DNA of 64,000 nucleotides from Acidobacteriota bacterium (GCA_003223135.1 QHXX01000018.1:65904-129903); one strand, 5' to 3'. Shown: positions 4,423 to 59,432, counted from the first letter of the stretch. Notes: generated by a model not told the origin, from the letters alone. A program made the numbers and translations.

Positions 4423-5210
<788 letters not shown>

Positions 5211-5396
5211 GATGCCGACTCGTGGGTCGTGCGGCCCAGCCGGCTGCGTTCGATGGCCCGGCGGCGCGCCGCGGTCAGGGTCACCACGCGCGCGCCGTGC
5301 GCCTGCGACCCCTTCCCGCCCGCGGGCCTGGAGCGGGGCCAGCGAACCGGCAGGCGGCGGCGCGCCCGGGCCTTGCGCCGCGCGGCGGTTTCGCGG

Positions 5397-6446
5397 CTAC
5401 GCGCGCGCCGGGCCATTGTTCAACCTAAGCACCCCGCGCGCCGGCCGCCCCGCGGTCCCCCCGGCACGCCCGGACGCGGCGACCTCCGAGTGGGGGTGGG
5501 CGCGACGGTAGACCTCGATGAGGCGGCGCGTCGACACGGCGGTGTACCGTTGGGTCGTCGACAGGGAGGAGTGACCCAAAAGCTCCTGAATCGAGCGCAG
5601 GTCGGCGCCGGCGTTCAGCATGTGCGTCGCAAAAGAGTGCCGCAGCATGTGTGGCGAGACGTGCTTCTGGAGAGCCGCGGCGCGCAGGCGCCCATTGAGG
5701 ATCCGGCGCACGCTGCGGTCGGTCAGGCGCCCGCCGCGGGCGTTGAGGTACAACGCGTCACGTGCCGCCCGTGGCATCGCCGAGTCCGGGCGCCCGGTCC
5801 GCCGGCCAGCGCGTCCTTCGGGGTGGTTTGGCAGGAGTTCCGGCCGCGCTCTCAGATAGGCCATCAGGGCCGAGACCGCCTTGGATCCGATCGGCACGAG
5901 GCGCTCCTTCCGTCCCTTTCCGAGCACGCGCAGCATCCCGTCCCCCGTGGCGCGGGACGTCTCCAGGTCGCCCAGGTCCGCTCCCACCAGCTCGGCCACC
6001 CGCACGCCGCTGGCGTAGAGCAACTCGAGGATGGATCGGTCGCGCAGGTCGCGCGCGCCCGTCCCGAAAGCGTGGTCGAGGAGCGATTCTACCTCATGCT
6101 CGCTGAGCGCGTGAGGCAACCGCCTCTCGAGCTTGGGCGTTGCGACCATCGCCGCGGGATTGGTCGCCACGAGTCCACCCCGCACCATGTGGCGGAACAA
6201 CGAGCGCAGGGATGCGAGCTTGCGTGCCACCGTCGCACGGCTGACGCCCCGGTCGTAGAGATGCGACAGGTACTCCCGTATGGCGTGATGATCGAGGGTC
6301 AGGAGGGTGGCCTGTTGCCTCGGTAGCAGACCGTTCGACACGAATTCCTGGAATTCTTTCAGGTCGGCGCGGTAGCAGCGCACCGTCTGGGGCGAGGCTT
6401 TGACGTTGTGCTCGAGGTACAGGAGAAAGTCCGCGACCGGGTCCAT
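5397..6446 (-). CDS. Tyrosine recombinase XerC/XerD family
   Basis: N-terminal core-binding domain (FLLYLEHNVKASPQTVRCYRADL), catalytic region HMLRHSFATHMLNAGADLRSIQELLGHSSLSTTQRYTAV with catalytic Tyr. Confidence 0.85.
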   Translation of the reverse strand: MDPVADFLLYLEHNVKASPQTVRCYRADLKEFQEFVSNGLLPRQQATLLTLDHHAIREYLSHLYDRGVSRATVARKLASLRSLFRHMVRGGLVATNPAAMVATPKLERRLPHALSEHEVESLLDHAFGTGARDLRDRSILELLYASGVRVAELVGADLGDLETSRATGDGMLRVLGKGRKERLVPIGSKAVSALMAYLRARPELLPNHPEGRAGRRTGRPDSAMPRAARDALYLNARGGRLTDRSVRRILNGRLRAAALQKHVSPHMLRHSFATHMLNAGADLRSIQELLGHSSLSTTQRYTAVSTRRLIEVYRRAHPHSEVAASGRAGGTAGRPARGVLRLNNGPARA

Positions 6447-10054: not shown

Positions 10055-10648
10055 CTACAGGAGATCGAGGACGCACAGATGGTCGTAGAAGGCGTCGAAG
10101 TTTTGCTGGCCGGCGTCGGGGAACAGGGTCATCAGCTGTCCGTAGACCTGGTGCAGCTTGCGGCTGCTGCTCTTGAGGTACGTCCCGCGTGAGCGGTAGA
10201 CATCGCGGTTGTCCTTGCCCGCCGCGCCGACGGAGAGCGCCTGGTTCCAGGTCTCGAAGTAGGCGCGCTGGTCGCGGATGGCGTCGACCAGCAGCCGCTG
10301 CACCTCCCGCAGCCGCTCGGGGGCCGGCAGGCCGTCCAGGATCGCGATGAGTGAATCGACGCGGTCGCGGTACTCCTGCACCGACTTCCCCCTGCGCCCC
10401 TCGGACTGGAACCATGTCCAGGCCTGCATTTTCTCGACGATCGCGAGGTCGACGAGCTCGAACAGGCGCGACAGGTAGGCCGCCTCCTCCCGGCTGAAGC
10501 CCCTGGAGGTCGGGTCGAGGGTGGCGTGGCGGTGCTGCATCTCCCGGTAGGCCTCCTCGACGGTCATCGCCTGCACGGGCACGAGGGCCGAGAGGGCCAC
10601 GAAGGCGGCAAGAAGGGGGGCGCGCGCGCGGTCAATCCAGGTCCGCAT
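10055..10648 (-). CDS. Hypothetical secreted protein
   Basis: N-terminal signal peptide (LLAAFVALSALVPVQA), no recognisable domain. Overlaps the stop of the upstream TPR-like gene, suggesting co-transcription. Confidence 0.45.
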   Translation of the reverse strand: MRTWIDRARAPLLAAFVALSALVPVQAMTVEEAYREMQHRHATLDPTSRGFSREEAAYLSRLFELVDLAIVEKMQAWTWFQSEGRRGKSVQEYRDRVDSLIAILDGLPAPERLREVQRLLVDAIRDQRAYFETWNQALSVGAAGKDNRDVYRSRGTYLKSSSRKLHQVYGQLMTLFPDAGQQNFDAFYDHLCVLDLL

Positions 10649-12443
10649 CGGGGTCCTCCTCGGCGTCCGGCTCCTGCGTCTCCTTCGATTGCGATCCCAT
10701 CTCGGGATGGTCCTGCTCTTCGTGGAGGCTGCCGTAGATCGCCTCCCTGTACGCCCGCTCCTTCTCGAGATCTCCCAGGAGGAAGTGGACGTCGGACAGC
10801 TTCAGCATCAAGGCGGCGTCCGGCCCGCCCCGGCCCGCGCTCTCGCGGTAGCGGTCGAGGGCCCGGGCGTAGTCCTTTTCGAGAAATGCGGTGTCGCCCA
10901 GTCTCTCGAGCCAGGGGGAGGCCGGCAGGTTCATCGCCTTGAGGCGTAAGGCCATCCGCGTGGCGTAACGCCCGGCGTCGGAATAGGACTTCTTCGCGAG
11001 GAGGACGTAGAAGTACTCCTCAGGCAGAAGCGCTGTGTGGAGACAACTTTGCCAGTCGGCCGGGAAGCGCTTCCTGACCATGTCGAAGACCCGTCGGTCG
11101 AGGTCATTTGACAGGGCGACCAGGGCGCATTCCAGGCGCGGGTCGTCAGCGGCGCGCGCGGCGTGAGCGCGAAGAGGCCGCTCGGCGGCCCCGAGGTCGG
11201 AGCGAGCGAGGCCGATCATCGCCAGCAGGAGCGGAAGGCGCGGGTCGTCCTTCCAGGCGGCGTGTAGACCTGCCAGGCGGACATCGACCTGCTCCCACCG
11301 GCCCAGGGCCGCCAGCGACAGGACGGCGGATGCTTCGTACATCGTCCCGCCCGGGGCCCGCTCGATCGCCTTTGCGAACCGTTCGAGCGCCGCCTCGGCG
11401 TCGCCGCTCACGAGCGCCGAGCATCCGCCTTTCCAGAGAAGCACGGCTTGCAGCGCGCGGACCGATTCGGCGGTTCCCCCTCCGGGAATCGTGGCCGGAC
11501 GTCCATCGATCAGGTTCTCCAGAGTCGGCAGGAGCCCGTCTCGTTTCAGCGCCTCGATCGCGCCGAAGCCGAGGCCGAAATCCGAGAGGTCGATGACCGG
11601 GAGGCAGGCCGGCCTCGACTTGAGCAGCGCCTGGGCGTCGTTCCAGGTGTCGAAGAAAAGCTTGCGGCGTCCCGGGGCGACGAACGGACCGAGAGCGATC
11701 GGCTGATCGACAGTCAGCAGAATGTCGTCCACGTAGTAGTCGACGTTGGAGGTGTCGTGACCGTTGTCGCCAATGAATGAGAACTTGTCCACGGCCGACC
11801 CGGGCTCGTTGAAGGCGTTCGCCTGGGCCTTCAGGGCGACGACCGGGTCGTTCCTTCCCTCCTCGCGGATCGTCAGGTCGTACCTGCCCGCGGCGATGTC
11901 GTAGGCCACGTCCACCAGGTACCAGGAGAAGGACCTGATCTGAATGAGGCGCATCGGGATGCTGTCCGAGTACTGGCACAGCCAGCCGCCACGCGTCTGC
12001 AGCCAGAACGCCACGCCGTCCTTTTTCAGCGAGAACCACTGCGGGCCGGCCAGCGCGATGTTGAGCTGCTCGAGCGGGTCGGCCACCAGGAGGGCGAAGT
12101 GGGCGTAAAGCATGCCCGACTCGCGCCGAGGAAAATATCCCTGCAGCTCGGGGAAGTTGCCGTCATCGGCCACGTCTCGTATCTCGACCGAGCGGTACCC
12201 GCTGTAGCGAAAGGCCGTGGAGAGGTGAACGCGCCCCTTCGCCTTCTCGAACACGGCGAAGGCGTCAGGACCGGTGGCGAGGTTGGCGTCGTCGAATCCA
12301 TAGCTGACCAAAATGCCCGAGGCGGCGGTCGCCCCCTGGCCGTCATCGGCGGGTCGGGCGGCCGCGGCGAGAGCGGGCGCGACGGAGACGGTCAGCAGAA
12401 AAGACAGGGCGACGACGGGCGAGACGCGAGCCATCCAGGCCAT
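10632..12443 (-). CDS. Large secreted protein: N-terminal beta-rich domain + C-terminal TPR-like helical repeats + acidic tail
   Basis: Start chosen at MAWMARVSPVVALSFLLTVSVAPALAAA (signal peptide). The ORF's upstream Arg/Pro-rich extension to 12710 is rejected. Confidence 0.5.
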   Translation of the reverse strand: MAWMARVSPVVALSFLLTVSVAPALAAAARPADDGQGATAASGILVSYGFDDANLATGPDAFAVFEKAKGRVHLSTAFRYSGYRSVEIRDVADDGNFPELQGYFPRRESGMLYAHFALLVADPLEQLNIALAGPQWFSLKKDGVAFWLQTRGGWLCQYSDSIPMRLIQIRSFSWYLVDVAYDIAAGRYDLTIREEGRNDPVVALKAQANAFNEPGSAVDKFSFIGDNGHDTSNVDYYVDDILLTVDQPIALGPFVAPGRRKLFFDTWNDAQALLKSRPACLPVIDLSDFGLGFGAIEALKRDGLLPTLENLIDGRPATIPGGGTAESVRALQAVLLWKGGCSALVSGDAEAALERFAKAIERAPGGTMYEASAVLSLAALGRWEQVDVRLAGLHAAWKDDPRLPLLLAMIGLARSDLGAAERPLRAHAARAADDPRLECALVALSNDLDRRVFDMVRKRFPADWQSCLHTALLPEEYFYVLLAKKSYSDAGRYATRMALRLKAMNLPASPWLERLGDTAFLEKDYARALDRYRESAGRGGPDAALMLKLSDVHFLLGDLEKERAYREAIYGSLHEEQDHPEMGSQSKETQEPDAEEDPDADLD

Positions 12444-12576
12444 CCCTGCGAATCTAGGGCCCGGAGATCCGGCCGCGCAAGGCCGAATTCGGCGCGGGAC
12501 GAGGCTTACAGGAACGTCATCGCGACCCGTGCGGAGGGTTCCGGCGACACGCGGGTCGGACGGAGGACGACCCGGG

Positions 12577-13915
12577 CTAACGCCCCGGCACGCCCGCCGG
12601 CAGCGTCTGACCGATGAAGGCCTCGAGGTTGTCGAGGGCGCGACGGACGAGGAGGGCCTTCTTCTGTCTCTTGTCGCGGGTGTCGCGGTCGAGCGGCGGC
12701 AGGAGCCCAAAGGCGATGTTGGTCGGCTGGTAGTGAGCCGCGTCGGCGCAGGAGATGTACCGCGAAAGAGCCCCGAGGGCCGTCGTCGCCGGGAAGATCA
12801 AGGGTGGCTGGGTTTCCGCCAGGCGCGCCGCGTTGATGCCGGCGATGAGGCCGGAGGCGGCCGACTCGAGATACCCCTCGACACCGGAGATCTGGCCGGC
12901 AAAGAACAGGTCCCGCCGGCGACGGGCCTGGAAGGTCGGCAGGAGGATGGCCGGCGCGTTGATGTACGAGTTGCGGTGCACCTGGCCGAGGCGCGGAAAT
13001 TCCGCGCGCTCGAGGCCGGGGATCATCCGGAACACCCGGATCTGCTCGGCGAACTTGAGATGATTCTGGAAGCCGACCATCGAGTAGAAGTCGGCCGCCA
13101 GGTTGTCCTGCCGGAGTTGCACGACGGCGAACGGCTGTTTGCCTGTGCGAGGGTCGACGAGGCCGACCGGCTTCATCGGGCCGAATGCGAGCGTCTCACG
13201 GCCACGGCGGGCCATCTCCTCGATCGGCAGGCACCCCTCGAAGTAGAAGATCTCCTTCTCGAACTCGTGCGTCGGCGCCTCGGCCGCCCCCAGGAGGGCT
13301 TGGTGGAAGCGGTCGTACTCGGTCTCGGTGAGAGGGCAGTTGAGGTAATCCTCGCCCCCCTTGCCGTAGCGCGATGCCCGGAACACCTTCGACAGGTCGA
13401 TCGTGTCGGCATCCACGATGGGCGAGATCGCGTCGAAGAAGTAGAGGTATTCGCGTCCTGTGAAGCGGGCGATCGCGGACGCTATCGCCTCGCTGGCCAG
13501 GGGGCCAGTGCAAAGGACGCACGGCCCCTCGTCCGGGATCGCCCGGGCCTCTTCGCGCAGGACGCGCACCTGCGGGAGCGACTCAATCGCCTCGGTGACG
13601 CCGCGGGCGAAACGCTCGCGGTCGACCGCCAGAGCCCCGCCGGCGGGCACCCGGCACGCGTCGGCCACACGGATGATGAGCGAGTCGCAACGGCGCATCT
13701 CCTCCTTCAGGAGACCGGACGCCGTGTCAAGGAGGTTCGACTTCAGTGAGTTCGAGCAGACCAGCTCGGCCAGGTCGCCCGTCGCGTGGACCGGGGTCGT
13801 CCGAACCGGCCGCATCTCATGCAGATCGACGCGCAGGCCCCGGCGCGCCGCCTGCCAGGCGGCCTCCGACCCGGCCAAGCCGCCGCCGATGATGATGACG
13901 CGTGTTGTGGCCACG
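12577..13915 (-). CDS. trmFO: Methylenetetrahydrofolate--tRNA-(uracil-5-)-methyltransferase TrmFO
   Basis: FAD-binding TRVIIIGGGLAGSEAAWQAARRG, ELVCSNSLKSN, GQISGVEGYLESAASGLIAGINAA; start GTG (VATTRVIIIGGG). Confidence 0.85.
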
Positions 13916-19499: not shown

Positions 19500-22388
19500 G
19501 TGACCTCGTCCGTCCTGCCGTCCGCGCGATCGTCGCACCATGCCGGGGCCTTCGTGCTTTGCGCCGCACTGCTCGGGATCGCGACCGTCCTGGGACTGGA
19601 GCGCTCACAGAATCGACCGAGGAGTTCACCGCCTTCGCCTGCCGGAGCGGATTACGATGAGGCCGTCCGACTCTATGTCGCCGGTCACTTCCAGGAGGCG
19701 CTCGAGGCGATCAACCGCGCGTCCGCTGCGGATGGATGGAGCGCTGCGCTGCGCGCGCTCGCCGGCTGGTGTCGTCTTCGGGCCGGCGCTCTGGCTGCGG
19801 CAGAGGCCGAGTTCCGCGCGGCGCTGAAGCTGGACGCGGGCGCCGTCGATCCACACGTGGGGCTGGGATACGTGCTGCTGCGCCGCGGTTCGTCGACGGA
19901 GGCGGAAGACCAGTTTCGTTTCGCCCTGCGCCGCGACGCCTCGAATCTCGACGCGCAGAAGGGGCTCGGTCTCGCGCTGCGTGACCAGAAGAAGTACTCT
20001 GACGCGACGCAGGCGTTTCGCGACGCGCTTCGCCTCAAGCCGGGCGATGCCGAGGCCGAGGGATTGCTGCAACAGGCGCTGGCCGCGGGAGACGGCGGCC
20101 GGGAGGAGCGGCCGCGCGGCCCGGCGACCGGCACGGCGATAAGGGTCGTCGCCCAGGCCAGGGACGGCAGGTTCTTCGTCCGGGAAGGCGGGCGCTTCCG
20201 GCCGCTGTTCGTGAAGGGAGTCAACATGGGGGTGGCGCTGCCGGGCCGCTTCCCCGCGGAATTCCCACCGGACGAGGCGACGTACCGCTCCTTCCTCTCG
20301 GCCATCGCCGGGATGGGCGCCAACGCGGTTCGCCTCTATACCCTTCTGCCCCCTTCGTTCTACGCAGCGCTGCGCCGGCACAACGACGCGGCCCGGTCGG
20401 CACCGCTCTGGCTCCTGCAGGGGATATGGACCGAGCCGCCGGCAGGCGATGACTACGACGGCGACGTGTTCGTCCGGCAATTCCGAGGCGAGATCCGGCG
20501 GGTCATCGACGCGGTGCACGGCAATCTCGACCTCGAGGCGCGGCCGGGTCATGCTTCGGGCATGTACCGGGCCGATATTTCGCCGCATGTCCTCGGTTAC
20601 ATTCTGGGCCGGGAGTGGGAGCCGCTGTCGGTTCGAACCTATGACGGCTGGTTCGCCAAAGGGCACAGAGAATCGTTCGCGGGTGCGTATTTCACGGCGC
20701 GCCTCGAGGATGGCGCCACGCCGTTCGAGCAGTGGCTGGCCCGGACCATGGACTTCGCCGTCGAATACGAGACCGGGGACTACCGCCAGCAGCGCCCGAT
20801 CTCGTTCGTCAACTGGCCCACGCTCGACCCGCTGCGACATCCGACCGAATCGACGGCCCCCGAGGAGGGAGCCTTCCTGCGCGCGATGGGCGAGGAGGAG
20901 ACGGCCGAGATGATCGAGGAGTACGGTGAGTGCGAGGATTGTGTCGGGGTGGACGCAGCGCGCATCGTCCCGACGCCCGACGCGCGGGGCGGTATCTTCG
21001 CGACCTACCACGCTTATCCTTATTACCCCGACTTCATGAATCTCGACCCCGGCTACAGCAGGGCGCGCGACTCGAAGGGTCCGAGCAACTTCATCGGGTA
21101 CCTGCGAGATCTCAAGACCCACCACGGCGCCCAGCCGGTGCTCATCGGCGAGACCGGGGTTCCGAGCAGCCGCGGCATTGCGCATCTCCAGCCTCAGGGG
21201 TGGAACCACGGCGGCCACACCGAGCGCGCGCAGGGGGAGATCGATGCCCGGCTGATGATGGATATCGACGAGGCGGGCCTGGCGGGCGGGGTGTTATTCG
21301 CCCTCCTCGACGAGTGGTTCAAGAGGAACTGGATGGTGTTCGATTTCGAAGTGCCGGCCGAGCGCAAGCCCCTCTGGCTCAATGTCCTCGACCCCGAAGA
21401 GAACTACGGTCTTCTGGCTGCGCGGCCGGGTGCCACGAGTTGGAAGGTGAAAGTCGACGGACGGGCGGAGGACTGGAACGGTGTGGCGCCGTTGGTGACA
21501 CGGCCCGAGGGCGGGCCGGAACGGCCGTTCAAGGACGGCTACGACCGGGCCCGCACGCTGCGAGGACTGGCGGTGACGTCGGACGAAGCCTACCTCTATA
21601 TCCGCCTCGATGTGGACCGGCTCGACGCCGACGGCGACGGCGCCCCCGACTGGGGAAAGGTGGCCTACCTCATCGGCATCGACACCTACGATGCACGGCG
21701 GGGGGATCACAGGTTGCCCATCACCGACAAGGCCGTCTCTCCCGCGGGCCTGGAGTTCTGCCTCGTCCTGGATGGCGCCGCCACGTCGAGACTCCTCGTC
21801 GATACCCCTTACGACCTCCAGACAAAGCGCCATCACCGTCCCTACGGTTCGGTCGAGAACGCCGACGGCCGCTTCATGGAGATCAAGGTCGAGACGAACC
21901 GCAGGCGCGTCGGACGCGACGGCACCGTCTACCCTGCCCAGCAGTCGAGCCGCTCACAGCTCATCCACGGCTCGATGGACCGGCGCGACCGGGACAGTTC
22001 GACGCTGACCGACTGGGCCGCCCGGACCGACTCGAACACCATCGAGATCCGCCTCGGCTGGGGGCTCCTGAACGTCACCGACCCGTCCTCCCGCTCTGTC
22101 CTGAGCGACGATCCGGACAATCTGAAGAACGTCGGCTGCACAAGAACCGCCGGCTTCCGCTTCTACGCCGCGGCGATCAAACCCGAAGGCGCCGCCGGAG
22201 GCCGGACGCCGATCGAGGCCCGGCTCGCCGATCGGCTGCCGCCGGGCGACCTCGCGCAACCGTCCGACCTGCCGATGTACGCCTGGCGCGGCTGGGACGA
22301 GCCGACGTACCACATCGAGAAGAAGGAGGGCTGGAGTATCTTGAAGCGGGCCTTCGAGGCGCTGCCGGCACACCGGGAGGCACCGTGA
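19500..22388 (+). CDS. TPR-repeat protein fused to a TIM-barrel glycoside-hydrolase-like domain (clan GH-A-like); putative EPS hydrolase
   Basis: N-terminal hydrophobic segment + ~4 TPRs. Then FVKGVNMGVALPG (GH5-like beta1), AGMGANAVRLY (like GFNxVR), GREWEP (possible acid/base), VLIGETGVPS (GExG nucleophile-like). Lies immediately upstream of the PgaA-like exporter. Confidence 0.55.
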   Translation: MTSSVLPSARSSHHAGAFVLCAALLGIATVLGLERSQNRPRSSPPSPAGADYDEAVRLYVAGHFQEALEAINRASAADGWSAALRALAGWCRLRAGALAAAEAEFRAALKLDAGAVDPHVGLGYVLLRRGSSTEAEDQFRFALRRDASNLDAQKGLGLALRDQKKYSDATQAFRDALRLKPGDAEAEGLLQQALAAGDGGREERPRGPATGTAIRVVAQARDGRFFVREGGRFRPLFVKGVNMGVALPGRFPAEFPPDEATYRSFLSAIAGMGANAVRLYTLLPPSFYAALRRHNDAARSAPLWLLQGIWTEPPAGDDYDGDVFVRQFRGEIRRVIDAVHGNLDLEARPGHASGMYRADISPHVLGYILGREWEPLSVRTYDGWFAKGHRESFAGAYFTARLEDGATPFEQWLARTMDFAVEYETGDYRQQRPISFVNWPTLDPLRHPTESTAPEEGAFLRAMGEEETAEMIEEYGECEDCVGVDAARIVPTPDARGGIFATYHAYPYYPDFMNLDPGYSRARDSKGPSNFIGYLRDLKTHHGAQPVLIGETGVPSSRGIAHLQPQGWNHGGHTERAQGEIDARLMMDIDEAGLAGGVLFALLDEWFKRNWMVFDFEVPAERKPLWLNVLDPEENYGLLAARPGATSWKVKVDGRAEDWNGVAPLVTRPEGGPERPFKDGYDRARTLRGLAVTSDEAYLYIRLDVDRLDADGDGAPDWGKVAYLIGIDTYDARRGDHRLPITDKAVSPAGLEFCLVLDGAATSRLLVDTPYDLQTKRHHRPYGSVENADGRFMEIKVETNRRRVGRDGTVYPAQQSSRSQLIHGSMDRRDRDSSTLTDWAARTDSNTIEIRLGWGLLNVTDPSSRSVLSDDPDNLKNVGCTRTAGFRFYAAAIKPEGAAGGRTPIEARLADRLPPGDLAQPSDLPMYAWRGWDEPTYHIEKKEGWSILKRAFEALPAHREAP

Positions 22389-24121
22389 GCCGCAGCCGGC
22401 GTCTGGTCGCGATCGTTGCCGTCGGCCTCGCCGTGTTCGCCGCTGCGGTCCTTCCGGCGGGGGCGGCGCCCCCGGCCGCCCGGGAGCGGGACACAACGCA
22501 GACGCCCGCTTCGGGCGCTCCGGTCGGGCGGCCGGTGGCCGACATCGTGAAGGAGGCGGACGCCGCCTTCGCGCGGGAGGACTTCAAGCAGGCGAAGGTC
22601 CTCTACGAGGAGGCGGCTCGCCTCGAGCCCGGCCACGTCCGCGCCCTGCATCGCCTCGCCCTCCTGCAGTCGTGGGACGGAGAACTCCGGGCGTCGGCCG
22701 ACAACTACCGCCGCGCCCTGGCTTTGGCGCCGGACGACTTCGACATAGAGCTCGGTCTCGCCCGGGTGCTGTCGTGGACGCACGAGTTCGGGGAGGCGTG
22801 CGTTCTCTACAGGAAGCTGCGCGAGAAACACCCGGACGACGCGCGCGTCCTCCTCGGTCTCGGAAACACACTGTCGTGGGCGGGCCGCTACGCCGAGGCC
22901 GACGAGGTCTTCAATGACATGGAGGCCCGCAAGATCGAGCCGATCCAGGCGCACGCCGGCCGGGCGCGCCTGCGCGGCTGGCAGGGGAAGCTCGACGAGG
23001 CGGCGCACTTCTGGCGCGACGTGCTGCGCGCGGATCCCGGCAACCTCGAGGCACGCATCGGTCTGGCGTACGTGCACCACTGGCAGGGACTCGATCGCAC
23101 GGCGCGCGAGCAGGCCGACAACATCGTCATCGACCACCCGGAGAGCAAGGAGGCGCGGGAGTTGAAGGAGGCGGTGCGGAAGGGACTGCGGCCGCACGCG
23201 GACGCGGACGCGTTCCGCTACAGCGACACCGACTCCAACCGGGTGGATGGCGGCACGGCGTCGTACACCTTCATGGCCGAGCCGCAGACCTCGATCAGGA
23301 TCGCCTACTCGACCTACGACGCGACGTTCCGCTGCGAGGACGCGCAGTTCTGCGATGAGCCGGGCCTCGCCGTCGGAGATGAGATCGACACGCGCGCGCA
23401 GGTCCTGACCGGTGCTTTGACGTCGCGCGTGATCTCCCCGCTGACCTTCAACGCCCGTCTGGGCGCGGTGCGGGAGGGGACCTTCGGCGGGGACACGCGC
23501 GTCGTCGGGGTCCTCGGCGGCTACCTCCGCTGGCAGGTCGGCCCGAGGTTCGCCCTCGGCACGAACGGCGGCCGGGACGTGTTCCTCGACACCGCCCCCC
23601 TCATCGACCGCGGCATCCGCATCACGGACGCCAATGCCCGCGTGGAGTTCCGTTTCAACCCGGCCTGGCTGCTCTCGGGCAGCGCCGGGGCGGCGTCGTT
23701 TTCCGACGGCAACGCGCGCCGCACGGCCGGGGCTGCGATCGAATGGCGTCTGCCGACGACGCACCCGTGGATCGCGGGCACGGTCGACGTCCGATACCGG
23801 TCGTTCAACGCCGACGAGGACAACGGCTACTTCGACCCGCGGCGCTACGACTCGGAGCTCCTGACCCTGGCGGTCTGGGACGACTACCGTGACGGCCTGC
23901 TCTACTGGAGGCTCGAGGGCACGTATGGACGGCAAGCCTTCACCGTCGGCGCGGTGAAACGCGACGACGCGGTGAGCGGCGGGTCCGTCCTCGCGGGCGT
24001 CAACTTCGCGCAGGGCAGGGCAGCTCTCGAGGCTTCGTACGCCCGCAGCGACTACGCGCTCAATGTCGCGCAGGGATTCACGTACAGCCGGACAGGGTTT
24101 TCCCTGCGGTTCCGGTTCTGA
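22385..24121 (+). CDS. PgaA/BcsC/PelB-like outer-membrane exporter: N-terminal TPR domain + C-terminal beta-barrel
   Basis: GTG start overlaps upstream stop (GTGA). Signal peptide LVAIVAVGLAVFAAAVLPAGA, TPRs, C-terminal alternating hydrophobic beta-strands ending ...FSLRFRF (terminal Phe). Confidence 0.55.
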   Translation: MSRSRRLVAIVAVGLAVFAAAVLPAGAAPPAARERDTTQTPASGAPVGRPVADIVKEADAAFAREDFKQAKVLYEEAARLEPGHVRALHRLALLQSWDGELRASADNYRRALALAPDDFDIELGLARVLSWTHEFGEACVLYRKLREKHPDDARVLLGLGNTLSWAGRYAEADEVFNDMEARKIEPIQAHAGRARLRGWQGKLDEAAHFWRDVLRADPGNLEARIGLAYVHHWQGLDRTAREQADNIVIDHPESKEARELKEAVRKGLRPHADADAFRYSDTDSNRVDGGTASYTFMAEPQTSIRIAYSTYDATFRCEDAQFCDEPGLAVGDEIDTRAQVLTGALTSRVISPLTFNARLGAVREGTFGGDTRVVGVLGGYLRWQVGPRFALGTNGGRDVFLDTAPLIDRGIRITDANARVEFRFNPAWLLSGSAGAASFSDGNARRTAGAAIEWRLPTTHPWIAGTVDVRYRSFNADEDNGYFDPRRYDSELLTLAVWDDYRDGLLYWRLEGTYGRQAFTVGAVKRDDAVSGGSVLAGVNFAQGRAALEASYARSDYALNVAQGFTYSRTGFSLRFRF

Positions 24122-24155
24122 GGCGCGGTTCTTTGCTCGCGCCGCGCAGCGAGGG

Positions 24156-24545
24156 GTGACGGCCGTGGCGGAGCAGGCCCGAATCCTGATCGCGGACGGC
24201 GACGCGCCCGTGCGACGCTTCGTGGCCGCGCTTCTCGTCCACGGAGGATACGAGGTGCATGAGGCCGCGGACGGCGAGTCGGCGCTTCAAAAGGCGGTGT
24301 CGCTCGCGCCGCGACTGCTGGTCCTGGACATCGTGCTGCCGGGGAAGGACGGTTTCGAGGTCATCAACTCGCTCAAGTCGAACCCGGCGACCTCCCGCCT
24401 GCCGATTCTGGTGCTGTCGGTGAAGGATCGCGAGGAGGATGTGGTGAAGGCGCTCGACCTCGGCGCCGAGGACTACGTCATCAAGCCGTTCAGCCCCCGC
24501 GAGCTCCAGGCGCGCATCCGCAAGATTCTCGAAAGGAGCCGGTGA
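24156..24545 (+). CDS. Stand-alone response-regulator receiver (REC, CheY-like) protein
   Basis: ILIADGD, phospho-acceptor context LLVLDIVLPGKDGFEV, LPILVLSVKD, AEDYVIKPF; no output domain. The ORF track starts at 24063, which overlaps the upstream gene. Confidence 0.75.
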   Translation: MTAVAEQARILIADGDAPVRRFVAALLVHGGYEVHEAADGESALQKAVSLAPRLLVLDIVLPGKDGFEVINSLKSNPATSRLPILVLSVKDREEDVVKALDLGAEDYVIKPFSPRELQARIRKILERSR

Positions 24546-24549
24546 CGCC

Positions 24550-25824
24550 GTGGATCCGGTGCGCCTTCTGATGGTCGAGGTGGTCGAGGGAGTCGGGGTC
24601 TTCCTCGCCCTTCTCACCTTTGCGATCGTCATCAACAAGGCGCTCCGCGAGGTGGGCGAGGCCCTCGACAGACACCGGCGCACGCTCATCGAGCCGGCCG
24701 TCTTCGAGTACCTCGGCGCCGCGTCCTCCAGGCCGCAGCGCGACGCCCTCCCGCGATCGTCGTCGCGCCGCGACCGGCGCCTGGTGGAGGAGTTCCTTCT
24801 CGAGGCGGCGCGCGTCGTGAAGGGGGAAACGCGCGACCGGGTGACCGCCGCCTTCGAGGCGCTCGGCTCGGTGCGCGAGGCGATCCGCGCTCTGCACAGC
24901 CGCCGCTGGTGGAAGCGCGCCGAGGCAGCCGAGAGGCTCGGGCTGATGCGAAGCCGCACGGCCGTCGCGCCGCTCGTGGCCCTGATGAGCGATCCGGAGG
25001 CGGAGGTGCGCATCCGCGCGGCCCGCGCCCTGGGTCTCGTTCGCGGAAGCACGTCGATCAGACCGCTCGTATCGGCCCTCGCGGACCCGAGCCGCTGGTC
25101 GGCGATCCGCGTCGCCGAGATTCTGATCAACGTCGGCGTCGAGGCGGTGGACGAGCTCCTCGTGGCCTATGAGACGTTGCCGCTTAACGCCCGAGTCTCC
25201 GCCCTCGACGTTCTGGGGCGCATCCGGAGTCTCAGGGCTGTCGGGCTGATGAAACAGTGTCTTTCGGACGCACACCCGGACATCCGGGCTCGCGCGGCGC
25301 ACGGGCTCGGCCTCATCGGCGATCCTGGCACCGCCCCCGACCTGATTCGCGCCCTCCGGGACACGGAGTGGCCGCCGCGCGCGATGGCGGCCAAATCGCT
25401 CGGCCGCCTCCGAGACCCTGCAGCCATAGGACCGCTGCGCGAGTCGATGAGGGACCGGCAGTGGTGGGTGCGTTACAACTCCGGCGAGGCGCTCCGGGCC
25501 CTCGGCCCCGAAGGTCTGGAGGCGCTGATCGACATGTTGAGCTCCGACGATCCGTACGCCCGTCACATGGCGGTGGCGCAGCTCGAAGAAGGCCGGGTCA
25601 TCGACCACTTTGTCGCGGACCTGACCTCGAACGACGCCGGCAAGCGCGCCGCGGCGATCCGCTTCGTCGACAAAGTAACCGCCGCCGCCCGCATCGACGA
25701 TACGACCCGGCAGGCGGCCAGAAGCGCCCAGGAAGGCGTGCGCCACGCGCTGTCCAACATCCTGAAAACGCCGTCGCCGGCACCTGCGTCCTCACCCGGC
25801 AAGGGGGACGGAGGACGTTCGTGA
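24550..25824 (+). CDS. Membrane-anchored HEAT/PBS-lyase-like repeat protein
   Basis: One N-terminal TM helix (GVGVFLALLTFAIVI), then >=6 HEAT-like repeats (EVRIRAARALGLV, WSAIRVAEILINVG, PDIRARAAHGLGLIGDP, WPPRAMAAKSLGRLRDP, WWVRYNSGEALRALG). Confidence 0.55.
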   Translation: MDPVRLLMVEVVEGVGVFLALLTFAIVINKALREVGEALDRHRRTLIEPAVFEYLGAASSRPQRDALPRSSSRRDRRLVEEFLLEAARVVKGETRDRVTAAFEALGSVREAIRALHSRRWWKRAEAAERLGLMRSRTAVAPLVALMSDPEAEVRIRAARALGLVRGSTSIRPLVSALADPSRWSAIRVAEILINVGVEAVDELLVAYETLPLNARVSALDVLGRIRSLRAVGLMKQCLSDAHPDIRARAAHGLGLIGDPGTAPDLIRALRDTEWPPRAMAAKSLGRLRDPAAIGPLRESMRDRQWWVRYNSGEALRALGPEGLEALIDMLSSDDPYARHMAVAQLEEGRVIDHFVADLTSNDAGKRAAAIRFVDKVTAAARIDDTTRQAARSAQEGVRHALSNILKTPSPAPASSPGKGDGGRS

Positions 25825-25852
25825 CCGGTCGCCGAGCCGCCGGTGGGCCACC

Positions 25853-27295
25853 ATGACCTGGATGTCCGTCCTGATCACAATCGTCCTCGCCTTCAACCGC
25901 TGGGTGATCTTCTACTTCGGCCTCCTGAACGGCGTCTATCTCTTGCTGTTCCTGGTGTCGTTCGTGGAGGTCCTGCGCTTCGTCAAGCGGACGTTCTTCT
26001 CCGACTACGAGCAAATCTTGAAGTCGGAGATGACCTGGCCCATCTCAATGATCGTCCCCGCCTACAACGAAGCGCGCAACATCGTCGAGACCGTGCGGTC
26101 GCTTCTCGCGGTGAACTATGGTCAGTTCGAGGTCGTCGTGGTGAACGATGGGTCCAACGACGGCACGCTCGAGCGCCTCATTTCGACCTTCGAGCTGAAG
26201 CGCACCGACCGCATCTACCGCCGCACGCTGCCGACCGGTCCCGTGCGCGGCATCTACGCCTCGCTCGAACATCCGAATCTCAGCGTCGTGGACAAGGAGT
26301 GGGGCGGCAAGGCCGAGGCGCTCAACTGCGGGATCAATGTGTCGCGCTACCCCCTGTTCTGCTCGGTCGATGCCGATTCGATCATGGAGGACAATGCGCT
26401 CCTGCGAGTGGTGAAGCCGTTCATGGAGCACCCCCAGGAGATGGTCGCCGCCGGCGGTATCGTTCGCATCGTCAATGGCTGCGAGGTGCGCGAAGGCCGG
26501 GTCGTGCGCATCGGCCTGCCGAAGAAGCCCTTGCCTGTCTTCCAGGTCGTCGAATATCTGAGAGCGTTCCTGGGAGGGCGCATCGGATGGAGCAGCCTGC
26601 GGTCGCTGCTCATCATCTCTGGCGCGTTCGGTCTGTACCGCAAGTCGGTGGTGATCGCCGCCGGAGGCTACGACAGCTGGTCGGAAACCGAGGACCTCGA
26701 GCTCGTCCTGAAGCTCCACGAGCACATGCGCAGGACCGGCCGCAAGTACCGCATCGTCTTCGTCCCCGACCCCGTATGCTGGACCGAGGTCCCGTCGACC
26801 TTTCGTGTCCTGGCTCGCCAGCGCAACCGCTGGCACCGCGGCCTGCTCCAGAGCCTGTGGCGCCACAAGCACATGATCTTCAACCCCGAGTACGGCGCCA
26901 TCGGCATGCTCGGGCTGCCCTACTTTCTTGTCTTCGAGTCCCTCGGCCCCTTCATTGAAATTCTCGGCTACATCACGGTCGCGCTCTCGTATTGGCTCGG
27001 CGTCCTGAACATCGATTTCTTCGTTCTCTTCCTAATCTTCGCCGTCTTCTTCGGGGTCTTCCTGTCCGTCGCCGCCGTGCTCCTGGAGGAGGTCTCCTTC
27101 CGCCGCTATCCCGGCTGGGAACACCTCGCCAGGCTCGTCTTCTACGGTGTCCTCGAAAACTTCGGCTACCGCCAGATCCTGGCCATCTTCAAGGTGAAAG
27201 CCTTCTGGGACTTTCTGCGGCGCCGTCGCGCCTGGGGCCGGATGGAGCGCGAGGGGTTCCGGGCGGGACCGGCGTCGCCGACCCTTCGGACCTAG
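25853..27295 (+). CDS. Processive family-2 glycosyltransferase, PgaC/IcaA/HmsR-like EPS synthase
   Basis: 2 N-terminal TMs, GT-A domain (VVNDGSNDGT; DAD in SVDADS), processive motif QRNRWHRG (QxxRW), C-terminal TM cluster; ~480 aa, no PilZ domain. Confidence 0.75.
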   Translation: MTWMSVLITIVLAFNRWVIFYFGLLNGVYLLLFLVSFVEVLRFVKRTFFSDYEQILKSEMTWPISMIVPAYNEARNIVETVRSLLAVNYGQFEVVVVNDGSNDGTLERLISTFELKRTDRIYRRTLPTGPVRGIYASLEHPNLSVVDKEWGGKAEALNCGINVSRYPLFCSVDADSIMEDNALLRVVKPFMEHPQEMVAAGGIVRIVNGCEVREGRVVRIGLPKKPLPVFQVVEYLRAFLGGRIGWSSLRSLLIISGAFGLYRKSVVIAAGGYDSWSETEDLELVLKLHEHMRRTGRKYRIVFVPDPVCWTEVPSTFRVLARQRNRWHRGLLQSLWRHKHMIFNPEYGAIGMLGLPYFLVFESLGPFIEILGYITVALSYWLGVLNIDFFVLFLIFAVFFGVFLSVAAVLLEEVSFRRYPGWEHLARLVFYGVLENFGYRQILAIFKVKAFWDFLRRRRAWGRMEREGFRAGPASPTLRT

Positions 27296-34458: not shown

Positions 34459-34873
34459 GGTGGGGTGCGGCAGAGACCGCGCTCCATCGCGCGTGATGAA
34501 CTAGTCGCGTCGGAGTCGATGCGCGGAAATCGCACACGCGGGGCTCAGAGTGATGCGACCTGGACACGTCCGCAGCCGGACATCATCACTGGATCCAACA
34601 GTTGAAGAACCGTCGTCGGCCCGATGCCTGGATGTGTGTGAGGTTTGTACAGCGCGCCTCCAAATCTATTGACGGTGATCATCTTGAGCCGTCGCCACCT
34701 TTCTGGCGCCGAGGTCTAACCCTCGCTGTTCCTTCACTTGCAGGCGCCCCCCGGACGTGGTGGTGATCGGATTGGACGTGGCACGGCCGTTGCGAATAAA
34801 GGCGACAACGGCGGCGCTCTGTCCGGCTCGGCCGACAGTCACCCATCAGGGGAGCAAGAGTTTCAAGGAGACC

Positions 34874-37012
34874 ATGCGGATCAGCGGACCGGGAGGAAGG
34901 CTCTATCTCATGGCCGTCGCGGCGGCCGGCGCGGCCCTGCTGGGCACCGCGGCCGCGGCCCTGTCGCTCCTCCTGATCGGCCAGATCGGCCTCGTCTCCT
35001 GCGTGGTCGTTCCACCCATCCTGCTGCTCGCGGTCTTGGTCTACCGCTCGTACAAGAGCCAGGCTTCGGAAAACCTGAAGCGTCTGGATGACCTGATGCA
35101 GGTGCACCTGTCGACCATCGAGGCTCTGGCGCTCGCCATCGACGCCAAGGACCCGCACGCGCAGGGACACACGCGCCGGGTGCAGGCGTACGCACTCGAG
35201 CTGGCGCGGCGGCTGCGGGTCCCGCGTCAGGACTACGAAGCGGTGAGCGCGGGGGCGCTGCTGCACGACATCGGCAAGCTGGCGATCCCGGACCACCTGC
35301 TCAACAAGCCCGGCAAGCTCTCGGACATGGAGTACCAGAAAGTCAAGGCCCACCCGTCCGTGGCCGCCGACATCCTGGCGAACGTGCACTTCCCGTATCC
35401 GGTGCTGCCCGCGGTGCGACACCACCACGAGCGCTGGGACGGGTCGGGCTACCCCGACGGCCTGCGCGGAGAGGAGATCCCGCTCGCGGCCCGCATCCTC
35501 ACCGTGGCCGACTCGCTCGAGGCGCTGACCTCCGACCGGGCGTGGCGGGGACGGAAGTCACCCGAGGAGGCCTGCTCCCTCATCGAAGCGTGGTCGGGAA
35601 TCCAATTCGATCCGGCGGTGGTGACGGTGCTGCGGAAAAGCCTTTCCGAGGTGATCGGCGCGGTCAGCGCCGTTCCGGAGCCGCGCAGGAGCGATGCGGC
35701 GGACGCACGGGCGCGCCTCGAGGAGGCCCTGGCGCGTATCGATTCGACCGGAATCTGGAACGGCCCGCCCGCTTCGGACGAGGAGGATCCGGGCGGGTTT
35801 GGCGACAGTCTGCACCTCGGCATCGGCGCGGAGCGGGCGCCCGCTCCCCAGCAGGCTGGCGGCGTGCCGGGCGTCGCGTCCGCGTCGGAGACGGGGACGA
35901 GCGTCTGGCTGGAGCGGGACGCCAGCGGCGCCATCGTCGGGCGCCAGACTTCCGTCCTGGGCTCCATCTCCTCGGCGCATCGCGAGGTCTACGCGCTGTA
36001 CGAGATCGCGCAGACGCTCGGGTCATCGCTACGCCTGTCGGAGGTGCTGGATCTGGTCGCAGCGAAGATCGGCCAGCTCGTTCCTTACCGCACCTGCGTC
36101 ATTTACCTCCTGGAGGACGACCACGAGGCGCTGTCGGCGCGGTTCGCGTCCGGCGCCAACGTCGAGCACCTGCGCGGACGATCGCTGCAGGTGGGCGAGG
36201 GGATCACCGGGTGGGCGGCAAGCCAGAAGAGCAACCGTTTCTCCAGCAGCCCCGACCTCGACCTGTCGGGCACCGAAGTCGACCCCTCGGAGTACTCGAC
36301 GGTGGCGGCTTTCCCGCTCATCCAGGACGGCAAGGCGCTCGGAGTGATCACCCTCTATTTCCCGAAGGGTGTCCCGTGCCTGGACGATTACATCCGCATG
36401 ATGGACATCATCGCCAAGCTCGCGGCCGCGGCGGTCTTCAACGGCACGATGTTCGCGGAGACGCAGGAGTCGGCGCTGACGGACGTCCTGACCAACCTGC
36501 CGAACTCGCGTTACCTGCGACAGGCGTTCGAGCAGGAGAAGGTGCGCAGCCAGCAGGCCGGCCAGCCGATGGCGTTCCTGGAGGCCGACCTGGACGACTT
36601 CAAAACGATCAACGATCGATACGGCCACAATATCGGCGACCGCTACCTGTCCGAGATCAGCCGCGTCCTCAAGAGCCACCTGCGCGAGCGTGACATCCTC
36701 GTGCGTCTGTCGGGCGACGAGTTCGCCGCCCTTTTGCCGATGACCGGCTTCGCCCAGGCGGCCCTCCTGGCCGAGCGCCTGCAGCAGGCGGTCGACCTGT
36801 TCACGCTGCGCCTGGAGGAGGGAAAGGTGGCACGTTCGGGGCTGTCGATCGGCATCGCCCTCTATCCGGTGGACGGCGAGGGGTTCGAGGACCTCCTGGT
36901 GCGCGCCGACCACAACATGTATCAGAACAAGGCCGCCCGCAAGAACGCCCGCCTCGAGCGCGCCCCCAACATCCTTCCGTTCCCGATCAAGAGCCCGGGT
37001 AAGATCGGCTAG
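34874..37012 (+). CDS. Membrane-anchored HD-GYP - GAF - GGDEF(SGDEF) c-di-GMP signalling protein
   Basis: 2 N-terminal TMs. HD-GYP (HDIGKLAIPDHLLNKPGKL...HHERWDGSGYPDGL), GAF (EGITGWAASQ...LGVITLYFPK), GGDEF domain with degenerate A-site RLSGDEFAALLP and intact I-site RERD. Confidence 0.8.
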   Translation: MRISGPGGRLYLMAVAAAGAALLGTAAAALSLLLIGQIGLVSCVVVPPILLLAVLVYRSYKSQASENLKRLDDLMQVHLSTIEALALAIDAKDPHAQGHTRRVQAYALELARRLRVPRQDYEAVSAGALLHDIGKLAIPDHLLNKPGKLSDMEYQKVKAHPSVAADILANVHFPYPVLPAVRHHHERWDGSGYPDGLRGEEIPLAARILTVADSLEALTSDRAWRGRKSPEEACSLIEAWSGIQFDPAVVTVLRKSLSEVIGAVSAVPEPRRSDAADARARLEEALARIDSTGIWNGPPASDEEDPGGFGDSLHLGIGAERAPAPQQAGGVPGVASASETGTSVWLERDASGAIVGRQTSVLGSISSAHREVYALYEIAQTLGSSLRLSEVLDLVAAKIGQLVPYRTCVIYLLEDDHEALSARFASGANVEHLRGRSLQVGEGITGWAASQKSNRFSSSPDLDLSGTEVDPSEYSTVAAFPLIQDGKALGVITLYFPKGVPCLDDYIRMMDIIAKLAAAAVFNGTMFAETQESALTDVLTNLPNSRYLRQAFEQEKVRSQQAGQPMAFLEADLDDFKTINDRYGHNIGDRYLSEISRVLKSHLRERDILVRLSGDEFAALLPMTGFAQAALLAERLQQAVDLFTLRLEEGKVARSGLSIGIALYPVDGEGFEDLLVRADHNMYQNKAARKNARLERAPNILPFPIKSPGKIG

Positions 37013-41757: not shown

Positions 41758-41862
41758 ATCCCTCCGCAGAGACCAAGTCGCTCAACATCGGCACGGTCCG
41801 GCGGTTCACTTCGGTCCCCTTGCGGTTCAGGACGGGACCGGCAGGACCGCGCCGCGAATGCC

Positions 41863-42149
41863 TCAGAGGACGGGGGACCCCGGGGGGGCGCGCAGAGGCC
41901 TGAGATAGCGGGTGGCGGTGCCGAGGGGTGCCGGCGGGGGGAGCGCTGCGATCTCGGACGGTTCCCACGCCGGGCGGCCGGGGCCTTCCGGGGAGTGGGC
42001 CACTCCGGGAGAGTTGAGTGCCTTGCAGGTGGAGCAGTCGCGCTGCGCCGCGCTGTGCGGTGCCGCGGCATGCAGAATCGAAACGGCAAGGAGCGCCAGA
42101 ACAACCACAGCGCACCAGGGGATCCAGCCTGCCCGCCTCGATGGCCGCA
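41863..42149 (-). CDS. Small membrane-anchored hypothetical protein
   Basis: MRPSRRAGWIPWCAVVVLALLAVSILHAAAPHSAAQRDCSTC...; one TM; sits between the ABC ATPase and the porin gene. Confidence 0.25.
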
Positions 42150-42219
42150 TCAACGGTTCCTTTTGCAGTGGGTCCGGCATCGTACCGTACGCCCCGGGCA
42201 TTGTCAAAGGGCCCGGTCG

Positions 42220-43029: not shown

Positions 43030-43087
43030 GCCGTGCTGCTCCCCGTGGCCGGGATCCCGACACCATGCTCAAGGTTCAGGTGCGCGG

Positions 43088-46016: not shown

Positions 46017-46025
46017 ATCCTTCGG

Positions 46026-47537: not shown

Positions 47538-47679
47538 GATGGGTTCGTCCTCCGTTCGCGCGATTGTTGAAGGTGACTGATGATATCACAACCCGGCCGG
47601 CCCGACCGCTCCAGGACCCTACCGGGCGGCGGGCGATGATGCTAAATTGGTCTGCCGATCGGCGGCAGAGGAGTGATCC

Positions 47680-54970: not shown

Positions 54971-54981
54971 GCGTGTCTCCT

Positions 54982-59390: not shown

Positions 59391-59432
59391 ACCAAGGCCT
59401 TCGCCTCCCGCGCGCGTAAGCACCCGCACGTC

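Follow-up and report, generated by a model that had tools for sequence, protein, structure and literature searches.

A five-gene acidobacterial operon proposed to encode a synthase-dependent, PNAG-like exopolysaccharide system with a HEAT-repeat synthase partner

Composition and packing of the locus

What does a gene cluster make, and how is it controlled, when a PgaC/IcaA-like glycosyltransferase and a PgaA-like exporter are encoded next to a receiver domain, a HEAT-repeat protein and a hydrolase unrelated to PgaB? We addressed this question for a locus in a window of 64,000 nucleotides (the whole stretch of DNA analysed) from a soil acidobacterium, in which five genes form an operon that most likely makes and exports a sugar polymer. 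The original prediction had described these genes as co-directional and tightly spaced or overlapping; the ORF positions bear this out, with five tightly packed genes on the + strand filling positions 19500-27295, and the Pfam and NCBIfam searches agree with the domains it had assigned to the products:

P1: 19500-22388, + strand, 962 aa, TPR + glycoside hydrolase
Porin: 22385-24121, + strand, 578 aa, TPR + PgaA-like beta-barrel, predicted outer-membrane exporter
REC: 24165-24545 (longest ORF 24063-24545), + strand, 126 aa, stand-alone receiver
HEAT: 24550-25824, + strand, 424 aa, single-TM HEAT-repeat protein
GT2: 25853-27295, + strand, 480 aa, predicted PgaC/IcaA-like membrane processive polysaccharide synthase

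The stop of P1 and the start of the porin overlap in a GTGA junction, HEAT starts 4 nt past the REC stop, and a 28-nt gap separates HEAT from GT2; a site scan found no + strand terminator-like site inside the five-gene cluster. The start of REC is likely the GTG at 24165, since a GAGGGG ribosome-binding site precedes this codon and the 126 aa form is called on sister contigs (126-129 aa as called); the N-terminal extension from 24063 is not conserved, and with the GTG start REC would not overlap the porin. Housekeeping genes on the opposite strand flank the cluster, with dprA and topA upstream and folC-like, MFS and accD genes downstream. No sugar-nucleotide genes are conserved near the operon, which fits the use of a housekeeping precursor.

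We consider it probable, on the basis of sequence and models, that the operon is a self-contained synthase-dependent (PNAG-like) exopolysaccharide system, in which HEAT would be the obligate co-subunit of the synthase, with an optional two-component input provided by REC. Features of the synthase-dependent class are present in the operon, namely a processive GT2, a TPR scaffold with an outer-membrane barrel, and a periplasmic hydrolase. We found no publication describing the five-gene system.

Synthase, exporter and hydrolase

GT2 matched the Pfam families Glyco_tranf_2_3, Glyco_trans_2_3 and Chitin_synth_2, and its best NCBIfam match was PgaC_IcaA (TIGR03937), at 125 bits against an equivalog cutoff of 422, so that on its sequence we class it as PgaC/IcaA-like yet outside this equivalog. 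Its identity to E. coli PgaC, relative to which it carries family-specific insertions, is 25% (E 6e-24), and in a profile alignment its residues 12-390 align with the Chlorella virus hyaluronan synthase. The AF2 model, of moderate confidence (pLDDT 70.6) and based on a shallow alignment in which all sequences were at least 66% identical, gave the Chlorella virus hyaluronan synthase (TM ~0.5) and BcsA as top Foldseek matches. The motifs NDGS (D99), DAD (173-175), TED (279-281) and QRNRW (323-327) are invariant in 34 homologues, and hydropathy places hydrophobic segments on both sides of the GT-A domain. The family match, the alignments and the structural matches thus agree with the PgaC/IcaA-like processive synthase originally proposed: rather than clustering with non-processive glycosyltransferases, GT2 groups with processive membrane synthases and is predicted to be of the inner-membrane type that forms its own translocation channel. 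As its homology suggests, it would draw on a common UDP-sugar to polymerise a beta-linked glycan, and would thread the chain across the inner membrane. The Bcs and Chlorella virus hyaluronan synthases have the same build (TM segments at the N-terminus, a GT-A domain carrying D, DxD, TED and QxxRW, interface helices and, at the C-terminus, a TM bundle) at ~15-18% identity to GT2, whereas the operon contains neither PilZ nor BcsB.

The porin comprises a Sec-type signal peptide (hydrophobic segment at aa 7-25), TPR repeats at about aa 50-265, a PgaA-like beta-barrel of ~310 aa and a C-terminal Phe. It matched TPR families in Pfam, PgaA_barrel below threshold (23.5 bits) and TIGR03939 (79 bits), and its residues 159-522 align with residues 407-747 of E. 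coli PgaA (hhalign probability 91.7%, E 7.6e-7). When a barrel-only profile was compared with the PDB, the sole meaningful match was the PgaA barrel 4y25 (E 0.076), with which it has the motif DFSDGNxR in common. These alignments point to a remote PgaA homologue, from the end of the TPR region through the barrel, and sustain, at the level of remote homology, the TPR + beta-barrel exporter foreseen for positions 22385-24121, including its prediction as an outer-membrane barrel. The polymer would accordingly leave across the outer membrane through a TPR protein with a PgaA-like barrel.

At the N-terminus of P1, aa 15-33 are hydrophobic and would form either a signal peptide or an anchor. Next come a TPR domain (aa 47-196) and a hydrolase domain of the clan GH-A (beta/alpha)8 type (about aa 215-605), and the protein closes with beta-sandwich domains (about aa 637-955). 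Invariant Glu residues lie at the end of beta-4 (W-E374-P) and of beta-7 (G-E551-T-G), corresponding to the clan GH-A pattern of an acid/base Glu after beta-4 and a nucleophile Glu after beta-7, and we assign the domain with confidence to the clan GH-A TIM barrels; the periplasmic TPR + TIM-barrel hydrolase-like protein of the original prediction therefore stands. P1 would dock through its TPR domain, and its retaining clan GH-A domain, recognisable by fold and catalytic residues, would trim or process what we infer to be the nascent chain. Neither P1 nor 120 homologues nor nine distant representatives matched a Pfam GH family, which sets P1 apart from PslG (GH39) and other exopolysaccharide-processing clan GH-A hydrolases, as do its N-terminal TPR and its place in a synthase-dependent rather than a Wzx/Wzy-type system. 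In the Bcs system, BcsC is likewise a TPR + barrel exporter and BcsZ likewise a periplasmic hydrolase, of GH8 fold versus the GH-A fold of P1.

The fold closest to the P1 hydrolase domain is a beta-1,3-glucanase. A polymer consisting of beta-glucan (curdlan-like beta-1,3-glucan or mixed-linkage) instead of N-acetylhexosamine, with P1 as its glucanase or transglycosylase, is nevertheless improbable in our estimate. Most probably the monomer is an N-acetylhexosamine and the polymer PNAG-like, because GT2 has affinity to PgaC and because relatives carry CE4 deacetylase fusions: two of their proteins (P0396 and P0487), which adjoin porin + HEAT or HEAT + GT2, join CE4 to the same type of hydrolase as P1.

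A closer likeness to PNAG operons also has to be weighed. With PgaABCD of E. coli (also HmsHFRS and IcaADBC) the operon has in common a PgaC-homologous GT2, a PgaA-homologous TPR + barrel exporter, a periplasmic polymer-processing hydrolase, a membrane-anchored synthase partner and, in relatives, the CE4-hydrolase fusion. The locus might accordingly be a divergent ordinary pga operon producing poly-beta-1,6-GlcNAc, in which P1 substitutes for PgaB's hydrolase half, HEAT stands in structurally for PgaD, c-di-GMP acts via an unrecognised site and REC acts indirectly. The PgaC_IcaA match and the identity to E. coli PgaC, the homology of the porin to PgaA and the CE4-hydrolase fusions, which mirror PgaB, all favour this explanation, and a survey of pga operons describes environmental variants that lack pgaB and pgaD (PMC7112194). 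We nonetheless judge it unlikely, given the distance of GT2 from the equivalog cutoff and its insertions relative to PgaC. Furthermore, P1 shows no similarity to PgaB (hhalign probability 0.1%), its clan GH-A barrel being unrelated to GH153. As originally predicted, the canonical PNAG partners are absent: the five proteins contain neither a CE4 domain (Polysacc_deac_1) nor a PgaD-like protein, and the operon holds no small membrane ORF, the single-TM HEAT being found upstream of the synthase instead. A protein of 424 aa thus replaces PgaD, a small two-TM protein clamped to PgaC by c-di-GMP.

Recurrence of the core and the HEAT partner

Our comparative set covered 80 genomes from several phyla that carry the whole cluster or its core, a recurrence which argues that the arrangement is not due to chance. 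The conservation of the REC, HEAT and GT2 neighbourhood across genomes, which the original prediction had left to be checked, was confirmed: HEAT lies directly upstream of GT2 in all 72 loci with enough flank, and REC is present in 57 of 69. A porin is found upstream in 34 of 58 loci and P1 in 28 of the 51 with enough flank; 22 loci have the complete set of five. REC is absent from Gammaproteobacteria and Myxococcales, the former having a compact P1-porin-HEAT-GT2 operon. The universal partner of GT2 is therefore HEAT, not REC.

HEAT matched HEAT_2 with 111 bits. Its one TM segment, near the N-terminus (aa 10-28), precedes a basic juxtamembrane stretch, and 27 homologues conserve the TM region as well as the segment NKAxRExRExxDRRRR. 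This order of helix and basic stretch indicates a single-pass inner-membrane protein whose solenoid should face the cytoplasm. There, as the co-occurrence suggests, HEAT would be indispensable to the synthase as its co-subunit or scaffold, in the role held elsewhere by PgaD, IcaD or PelE. In the Pel synthase complex, the scaffold is PelE, a membrane-anchored alpha-solenoid (TPR-like); PelB is a TPR + porin exporter, and PelA, a periplasmic hydrolase/deacetylase, docks on the TPR domain, so that the roles of the three match those proposed for HEAT, the porin and P1. By this analogy, the accessory proteins would be functional counterparts of canonical components, one a periplasmic hydrolase and another a PelE-like alpha-solenoid scaffold. 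The Pel system (PelD-PelE-PelF-PelG, PelA and PelB) has no sequence relationship to the operon and combines a cytoplasmic GT4, PelF, with a separate transporter-like PelG and c-di-GMP control via PelD, whereas the synthase here is a GT2 with its own predicted channel and the regulator a receiver domain.

In many relatives (Gemmatimonadales, strain Mor1), REC-HEAT-GT2 occurs without P1, and in some also without a nearby porin, indicating that exporter and hydrolase are not universal; in some loci dnaX, dprA-topA or other housekeeping genes adjoin the core. Such loci would suit another function, in which the product of the core is a glycolipid or a glycan of the cell envelope or periplasm, P1 and the porin having been recruited in some lineages only. 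The identity of GT2 across phyla, unusually high at 52-89%, would be in keeping with this, and one operon variant has an additional protein, with a polyprenol kinase-like C-terminus and a Cys-phosphatase motif, which hints at lipid chemistry. We regard such a function as very improbable: the core is co-transcribed with the PgaA-like exporter and the periplasmic hydrolase in the window and in the 28 loci with P1 upstream; many loci without an upstream porin have a porin-like TPR gene downstream instead; single polypeptides fuse GT2 to the hydrolase (P0469) or the TPR-hydrolase to the TPR-barrel (P0371 and P0378); and synthases that combine QxxRW with a TM bundle at the C-terminus typically translocate polymers. 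A secreted polymer thus remains our preferred reading.

The receiver domain and control of the system

Control of the proposed exopolysaccharide system looks to depend on the HEAT partner and a receiver protein rather than on a recognisable c-di-GMP receptor. No PilZ, GGDEF, MshEN or GAF domain was detected by Pfam and NCBIfam in the five proteins, nor was a c-di-GMP receptor domain of the PilZ, PelD, PgaCD or MshEN types found among them, and this lack of a known c-di-GMP-binding domain counts against a divergent pga operon. The conserved, Arg-rich C-terminal tail of GT2 (RRRRxWGxM) is a candidate c-di-GMP site outside any known domain. GGDEF proteins are encoded elsewhere in the window (34757-37012 and 52750-53718); they would suit a pga operon, but at least 7 kb, including housekeeping genes on the opposite strand, separate their genes from the operon. 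In the operon, the receiver occupies the place where the c-di-GMP-dependent PgaC-PgaD clamp would be, and the translational coupling of REC to HEAT, like the kinases fused or adjacent in relatives, also argues against the pga assignment.

REC matched Response_reg with 88 bits, and all 62 aligned orthologues retain the phospho-acceptor Asp together with the Ser/Thr (Ser in the window) and the Lys. The metal-binding position equivalent to CheY-D13 and PleD-D10, second in the N-terminal acidic pair for Mg2+, is Asp in most of the other aligned orthologues; the REC of the window and those of its closest relatives have Gly there, which may impair phosphorylation in this lineage. The ~40 window genes scanned included no histidine kinase. 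In two relatives only, a kinase adjoins the system: in one (L088), a PAS-HisKA-HATPase kinase overlaps the start of REC-HEAT-GT2::GH, and in the other (L033), the stand-alone REC is absent and its place is taken by a hybrid kinase, itself containing two receiver domains, directly upstream of P1-porin-HEAT-GT2. These two cases lend comparative support to the phosphorylation control put forward in the original prediction, while gating itself is something we infer. REC may be an optional two-component input, an add-on which, given its linkage, would pass a phosphorylation signal to HEAT-GT2 by protein-protein contact. A single-domain response regulator, EpsW, controls exopolysaccharide output in Myxococcus and belongs to a Wzx/Wzy pathway. 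It resembles REC as a stand-alone receiver in a polysaccharide locus that presumably works by protein-protein contact, and differs in having no HEAT partner, whereas REC is translationally coupled to the putative synthase co-subunit.

Gene order and conservation of the operon

The five genes lie on the forward strand of the window, whose G+C content is about 67%, and housekeeping genes on the opposite strand border them on both sides (dprA and topA upstream; a folC-like gene, an MFS gene and accD downstream). Their arrangement is as follows.

19500-22388, + strand: P1, TPR and predicted glycoside hydrolase protein, 962 aa
22385-24121, + strand: porin, TPR and predicted beta-barrel exporter, 578 aa; P1 stop and porin GTG start overlap (GTGA junction)
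24063-24545, + strand: REC, stand-alone receiver, longest open reading frame; a GTG at 24165 after a GAGGGG ribosome-binding site gives 126 aa
24550-25824, + strand: HEAT, single-TM HEAT-repeat protein; begins 4 nt past the receiver stop
25853-27295, + strand: GT2, predicted membrane polysaccharide synthase; preceded by a 28-nt gap

The 126-aa receiver product has the length called on sister contigs. A promoter and terminator scan, itself uninformative, gave no terminator-like site on the + strand within the cluster. The MAG assembly GCA_001920795.1 and contigs from soil metagenomes encode proteins identical to those of the window.

Scanning genomes for relatives of GT2 gave 281, of which the best 80 loci were analyzed. 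They belong to Acidobacteriota (about 46), Gemmatimonadota (17), Gammaproteobacteria (6) and Myxococcales (2), the rest being Ignavibacteria, Bacteroidota and others, and the nearest relatives among them are Acidobacteria gp22 / Polarisedimenticolia. The conservation of this neighbourhood in relatives, on which the original prediction depended, was borne out: among loci with sufficient flanking sequence, HEAT lies directly upstream of GT2 in 72 of 72, REC is present in 57 of 69, the porin is upstream in 34 of 58 and P1 in 28 of 51, and 22 loci carry the full five-gene set. When all open reading frames of the 80 loci were clustered, only the five genes and the topA/dprA synteny recurred, with no conserved sugar-nucleotide or kinase genes. 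In strain Mor1, REC-HEAT-GT2 adjoins dprA-topA as in the window, without P1. The gammaproteobacterial loci lack REC and form compact operons of four genes, P1-porin-HEAT-GT2, whose junctions overlap.

A second layout, REC-HEAT-GT2-porin'-X, places a porin-like TPR gene downstream of GT2 (L052, L053, L061, L068, L070 and L075; for example L061:12662-14926). Protein X, an uncharacterized membrane protein of 490-755 aa without a Pfam match, carries a HCxxGxxR Cys-phosphatase-like motif, present in one module and repeated in degenerate form in another, and its polytopic C-terminus resembles a polyprenol kinase or CTP-transferase; the window lacks it. Three MAG contigs labelled Patescibacteria and Dongiaceae (L017, L024, L082) bear an acidobacterial-type operon with GT2 identities of 69-73%, and are probably mis-binned.

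Predicted synthase, exporter and hydrolase

GT2 matches the Pfam families Glyco_tranf_2_3, Glyco_trans_2_3 and Chitin_synth_2, and among NCBIfam models it scores best against PgaC_IcaA, with 125 bits, far below the 422-bit equivalog cutoff. Aligned with E. coli PgaC over 333 aa, it is 25% identical (E 6e-24) and has family-specific insertions. A profile of its homologues aligns residues 12-390 to the Chlorella virus hyaluronan synthase and also matches BcsA and chitin synthase. In a Foldseek search with a moderately confident AF2 model (pLDDT 70.6), the leading matches were hyaluronan synthase (TM about 0.5) and BcsA. Hydrophobic helices border the GT-A domain, in which D99, D173-x-D175, T279-E-D281 and Q323-R-x-R-W327 are invariant across 34 homologues. 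Motifs, profile and fold matches thus uphold the claim of a processive-type synthase, and no grouping with non-processive transferases was seen. The cytoplasmic C-terminal tail (window 27200-27295, residues about 450-470) contains the conserved Arg-rich sequence RRRRxWGxMxRxGF, in which R457, W461, G462, M464, G468 and F469 are invariant; a ligand or partner protein might make contact there.

The 22385-24121 product has a Sec-like signal peptide, a TPR domain and a C-terminal region of about 310 aa whose last residue is Phe. PDB searches with full-length P1 and porin profiles gave TPR proteins only, and for the porin a barrel-only profile was needed; its sole meaningful match was the PgaA barrel 4y25 (E 0.076), with which it has a DFSDGNxR motif in common. 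A profile of 23 orthologues aligned porin residues 159-522 with residues 407-747 of E. coli PgaA at a probability of 91.7%, and PgaA_barrel scored sub-threshold in 4 of 16 family members. The signal peptide, the TPR domain, the PgaA alignment and the 4y25 match therefore support the predicted outer-membrane beta-barrel exporter, through remote homology to PgaA. NfrAB was ruled out as the nearest system: NfrB is much more remote from GT2 (E 0.008) than PgaC is, and NfrA gave no match to the porin (probability 7%).

Pfam detects only TPR repeats in P1, as it does in 120 homologues. The AF2 model built from 50 homologues (pLDDT 87.3) comprises an N-terminal helix, TPRs at 47-196, a (beta/alpha)8 barrel at about 215-605 and beta-sandwich domains. 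Invariant residues are R278, R371-E372-W373-E374-P375, H504, Y506 and E551, of which, in the model, E374 lies at the end of beta-4 and E551 at that of beta-7, the acid/base and nucleophile positions of clan GH-A. These observations support P1 as a clan GH-A hydrolase of a new family that occupies the place of PgaB; kinship with PgaB itself was ruled out, as the two proteins have no similarity. Clustered at 50%, sequences of the catalytic domain alone yield 1,290 representatives.

Among distant representatives of this hydrolase domain, several gene fusions were found; close homologues yielded none, and the long N-terminus of P0069 seems to stem from a wrongly called start. P0371 and P0378 join P1 to the porin in one chain (TPR-GH...TPR-BcsC_C-like barrel), P0469 is a GT2::GH fusion, and in P0396 and P0487 the hydrolase is followed by a CE4 Polysacc_deac_1 domain, which is absent from the window's operon. 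One GH-CE4 gene precedes a TPR-porin gene and HEAT at the end of its contig; the other follows a HEAT fragment and GT2 on a contig of 39% G+C.

These data support a synthase-dependent exopolysaccharide system on the PNAG plan, in which the synthase resembles PgaC and the exporter PgaA. The CE4 fusions in relatives and the affinity to PgaC favour an N-acetylhexosamine-type polymer; a beta-glucan, hinted at by GH157 and GH72 among the fold neighbours of the hydrolase, is a less likely alternative. The putative system is conserved across phyla and internally coherent, its assignment being purely computational.

The HEAT-repeat protein, the receiver and proposed regulation

HEAT has one TM segment (aa 10-28), followed by a conserved basic stretch and HEAT_2 repeats, and the positive-inside rule places its solenoid in the cytoplasm, the side where REC and the GT-A domain also lie. 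The evidence supports a membrane protein of a new family occupying the place of PgaD. Since HEAT accompanies the synthase universally, we interpret it as a co-subunit or scaffold of that enzyme and not just an adaptor for REC, which is the lineage-variable input.

REC conserves its phospho-acceptor Asp, Ser/Thr and Lys residues across the 62 orthologues aligned. The Mg2+-binding acidic position equivalent to CheY-D13 / PleD-D10 is Gly in the window (ADGD) and in its closest relatives L063 and L007, Ser in L006 and Asp in most other orthologues aligned, so that the phospho-acceptor site may be weakened or atypical in this lineage. Kinases occur in a few relatives: among the distant hydrolase representatives, one locus encodes PAS-HisKA-HATPase kinase / REC / HEAT / GT2::GH with overlapping kinase and REC genes, and in L008 a kinase lies 3.8 kb downstream from where GT2 starts. 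Of the 80 loci, only L033 has a kinase next to the operon. This hybrid protein of 1,102 aa, with two receiver domains, is encoded directly upstream of P1-porin-HEAT-GT2, and the locus lacks a stand-alone REC.

The lack of an output domain in REC, its translational coupling to HEAT and the fused or adjacent kinases in relatives suggest post-translational two-component control of the synthase, in line with the phosphorylation gating first proposed. Regulation in the window's own organism is the least certain part, given the atypical acidic pocket and the lack of a histidine kinase among about 40 genes scanned in the window. To our knowledge, c-di-GMP controls all known synthase-dependent exopolysaccharide systems. 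We entertain as a tentative and rather doubtful whole the reading in which phosphorylated REC would dock on HEAT to switch the synthase by two-component signalling instead of c-di-GMP, P1 would found an unclassified GH-A family, and the product would be a matrix polymer widespread in soil Acidobacteriota, Gemmatimonadota and some Proteobacteria.

Few kinds of synthase-dependent exopolysaccharide system are known: alginate, cellulose, PNAG, Pel and the recently added Nfr. Full-text literature searching found no description of a HEAT + REC + GT2 system; what comes nearest is a brief remark, in a survey of biofilm operons, on a pga organization without pgaB and pgaD in environmental bacteria (PMC7112194). 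If correct, the proposal would provide a second way to switch a polysaccharide synthase, one that relies on a two-component receiver and an obligate HEAT-repeat subunit. It would also bring in about 1,300 cluster representatives of a glycoside hydrolase domain that is so far unclassified, and name a candidate matrix polymer for abundant, poorly cultured soil phyla in which aggregation and desiccation tolerance matter. The GT2::GH, GH::porin, GH::CE4 and kinase::REC fusions offer ready hypotheses and constructs for experiments.

Other genes in the window

Four large open reading frames with coding-like GC3, at 10635-12710 (-), 41371-43158 (+), 60533-62374 (+) and 5145-6323 (+), match no Pfam family at E <= 1e-5. 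The gene at 34757-37012 (+), some 7.5 kb downstream from the operon, encodes a 751-aa HD_5 (HD-GYP-type) + GAF + GGDEF protein; no evidence linking it to the operon was found, and opposite-strand housekeeping genes intervene. At 52750-53718 (-) and 53723-55339 (-), a REC-GGDEF (PleD/WspR-like) diguanylate cyclase gene lies directly downstream of ftsZ and ends a cell-division and cell-wall cluster, with murC (58004-59539) and mraY (63014-63967) close by. A trehalose gene set occupies 45248-49500:

45248-46114, - strand: otsB-like phosphatase
46029-47537, - strand: GT20 OtsA-like synthase
47680-49500, + strand: GH15 trehalase-like gene, divergent
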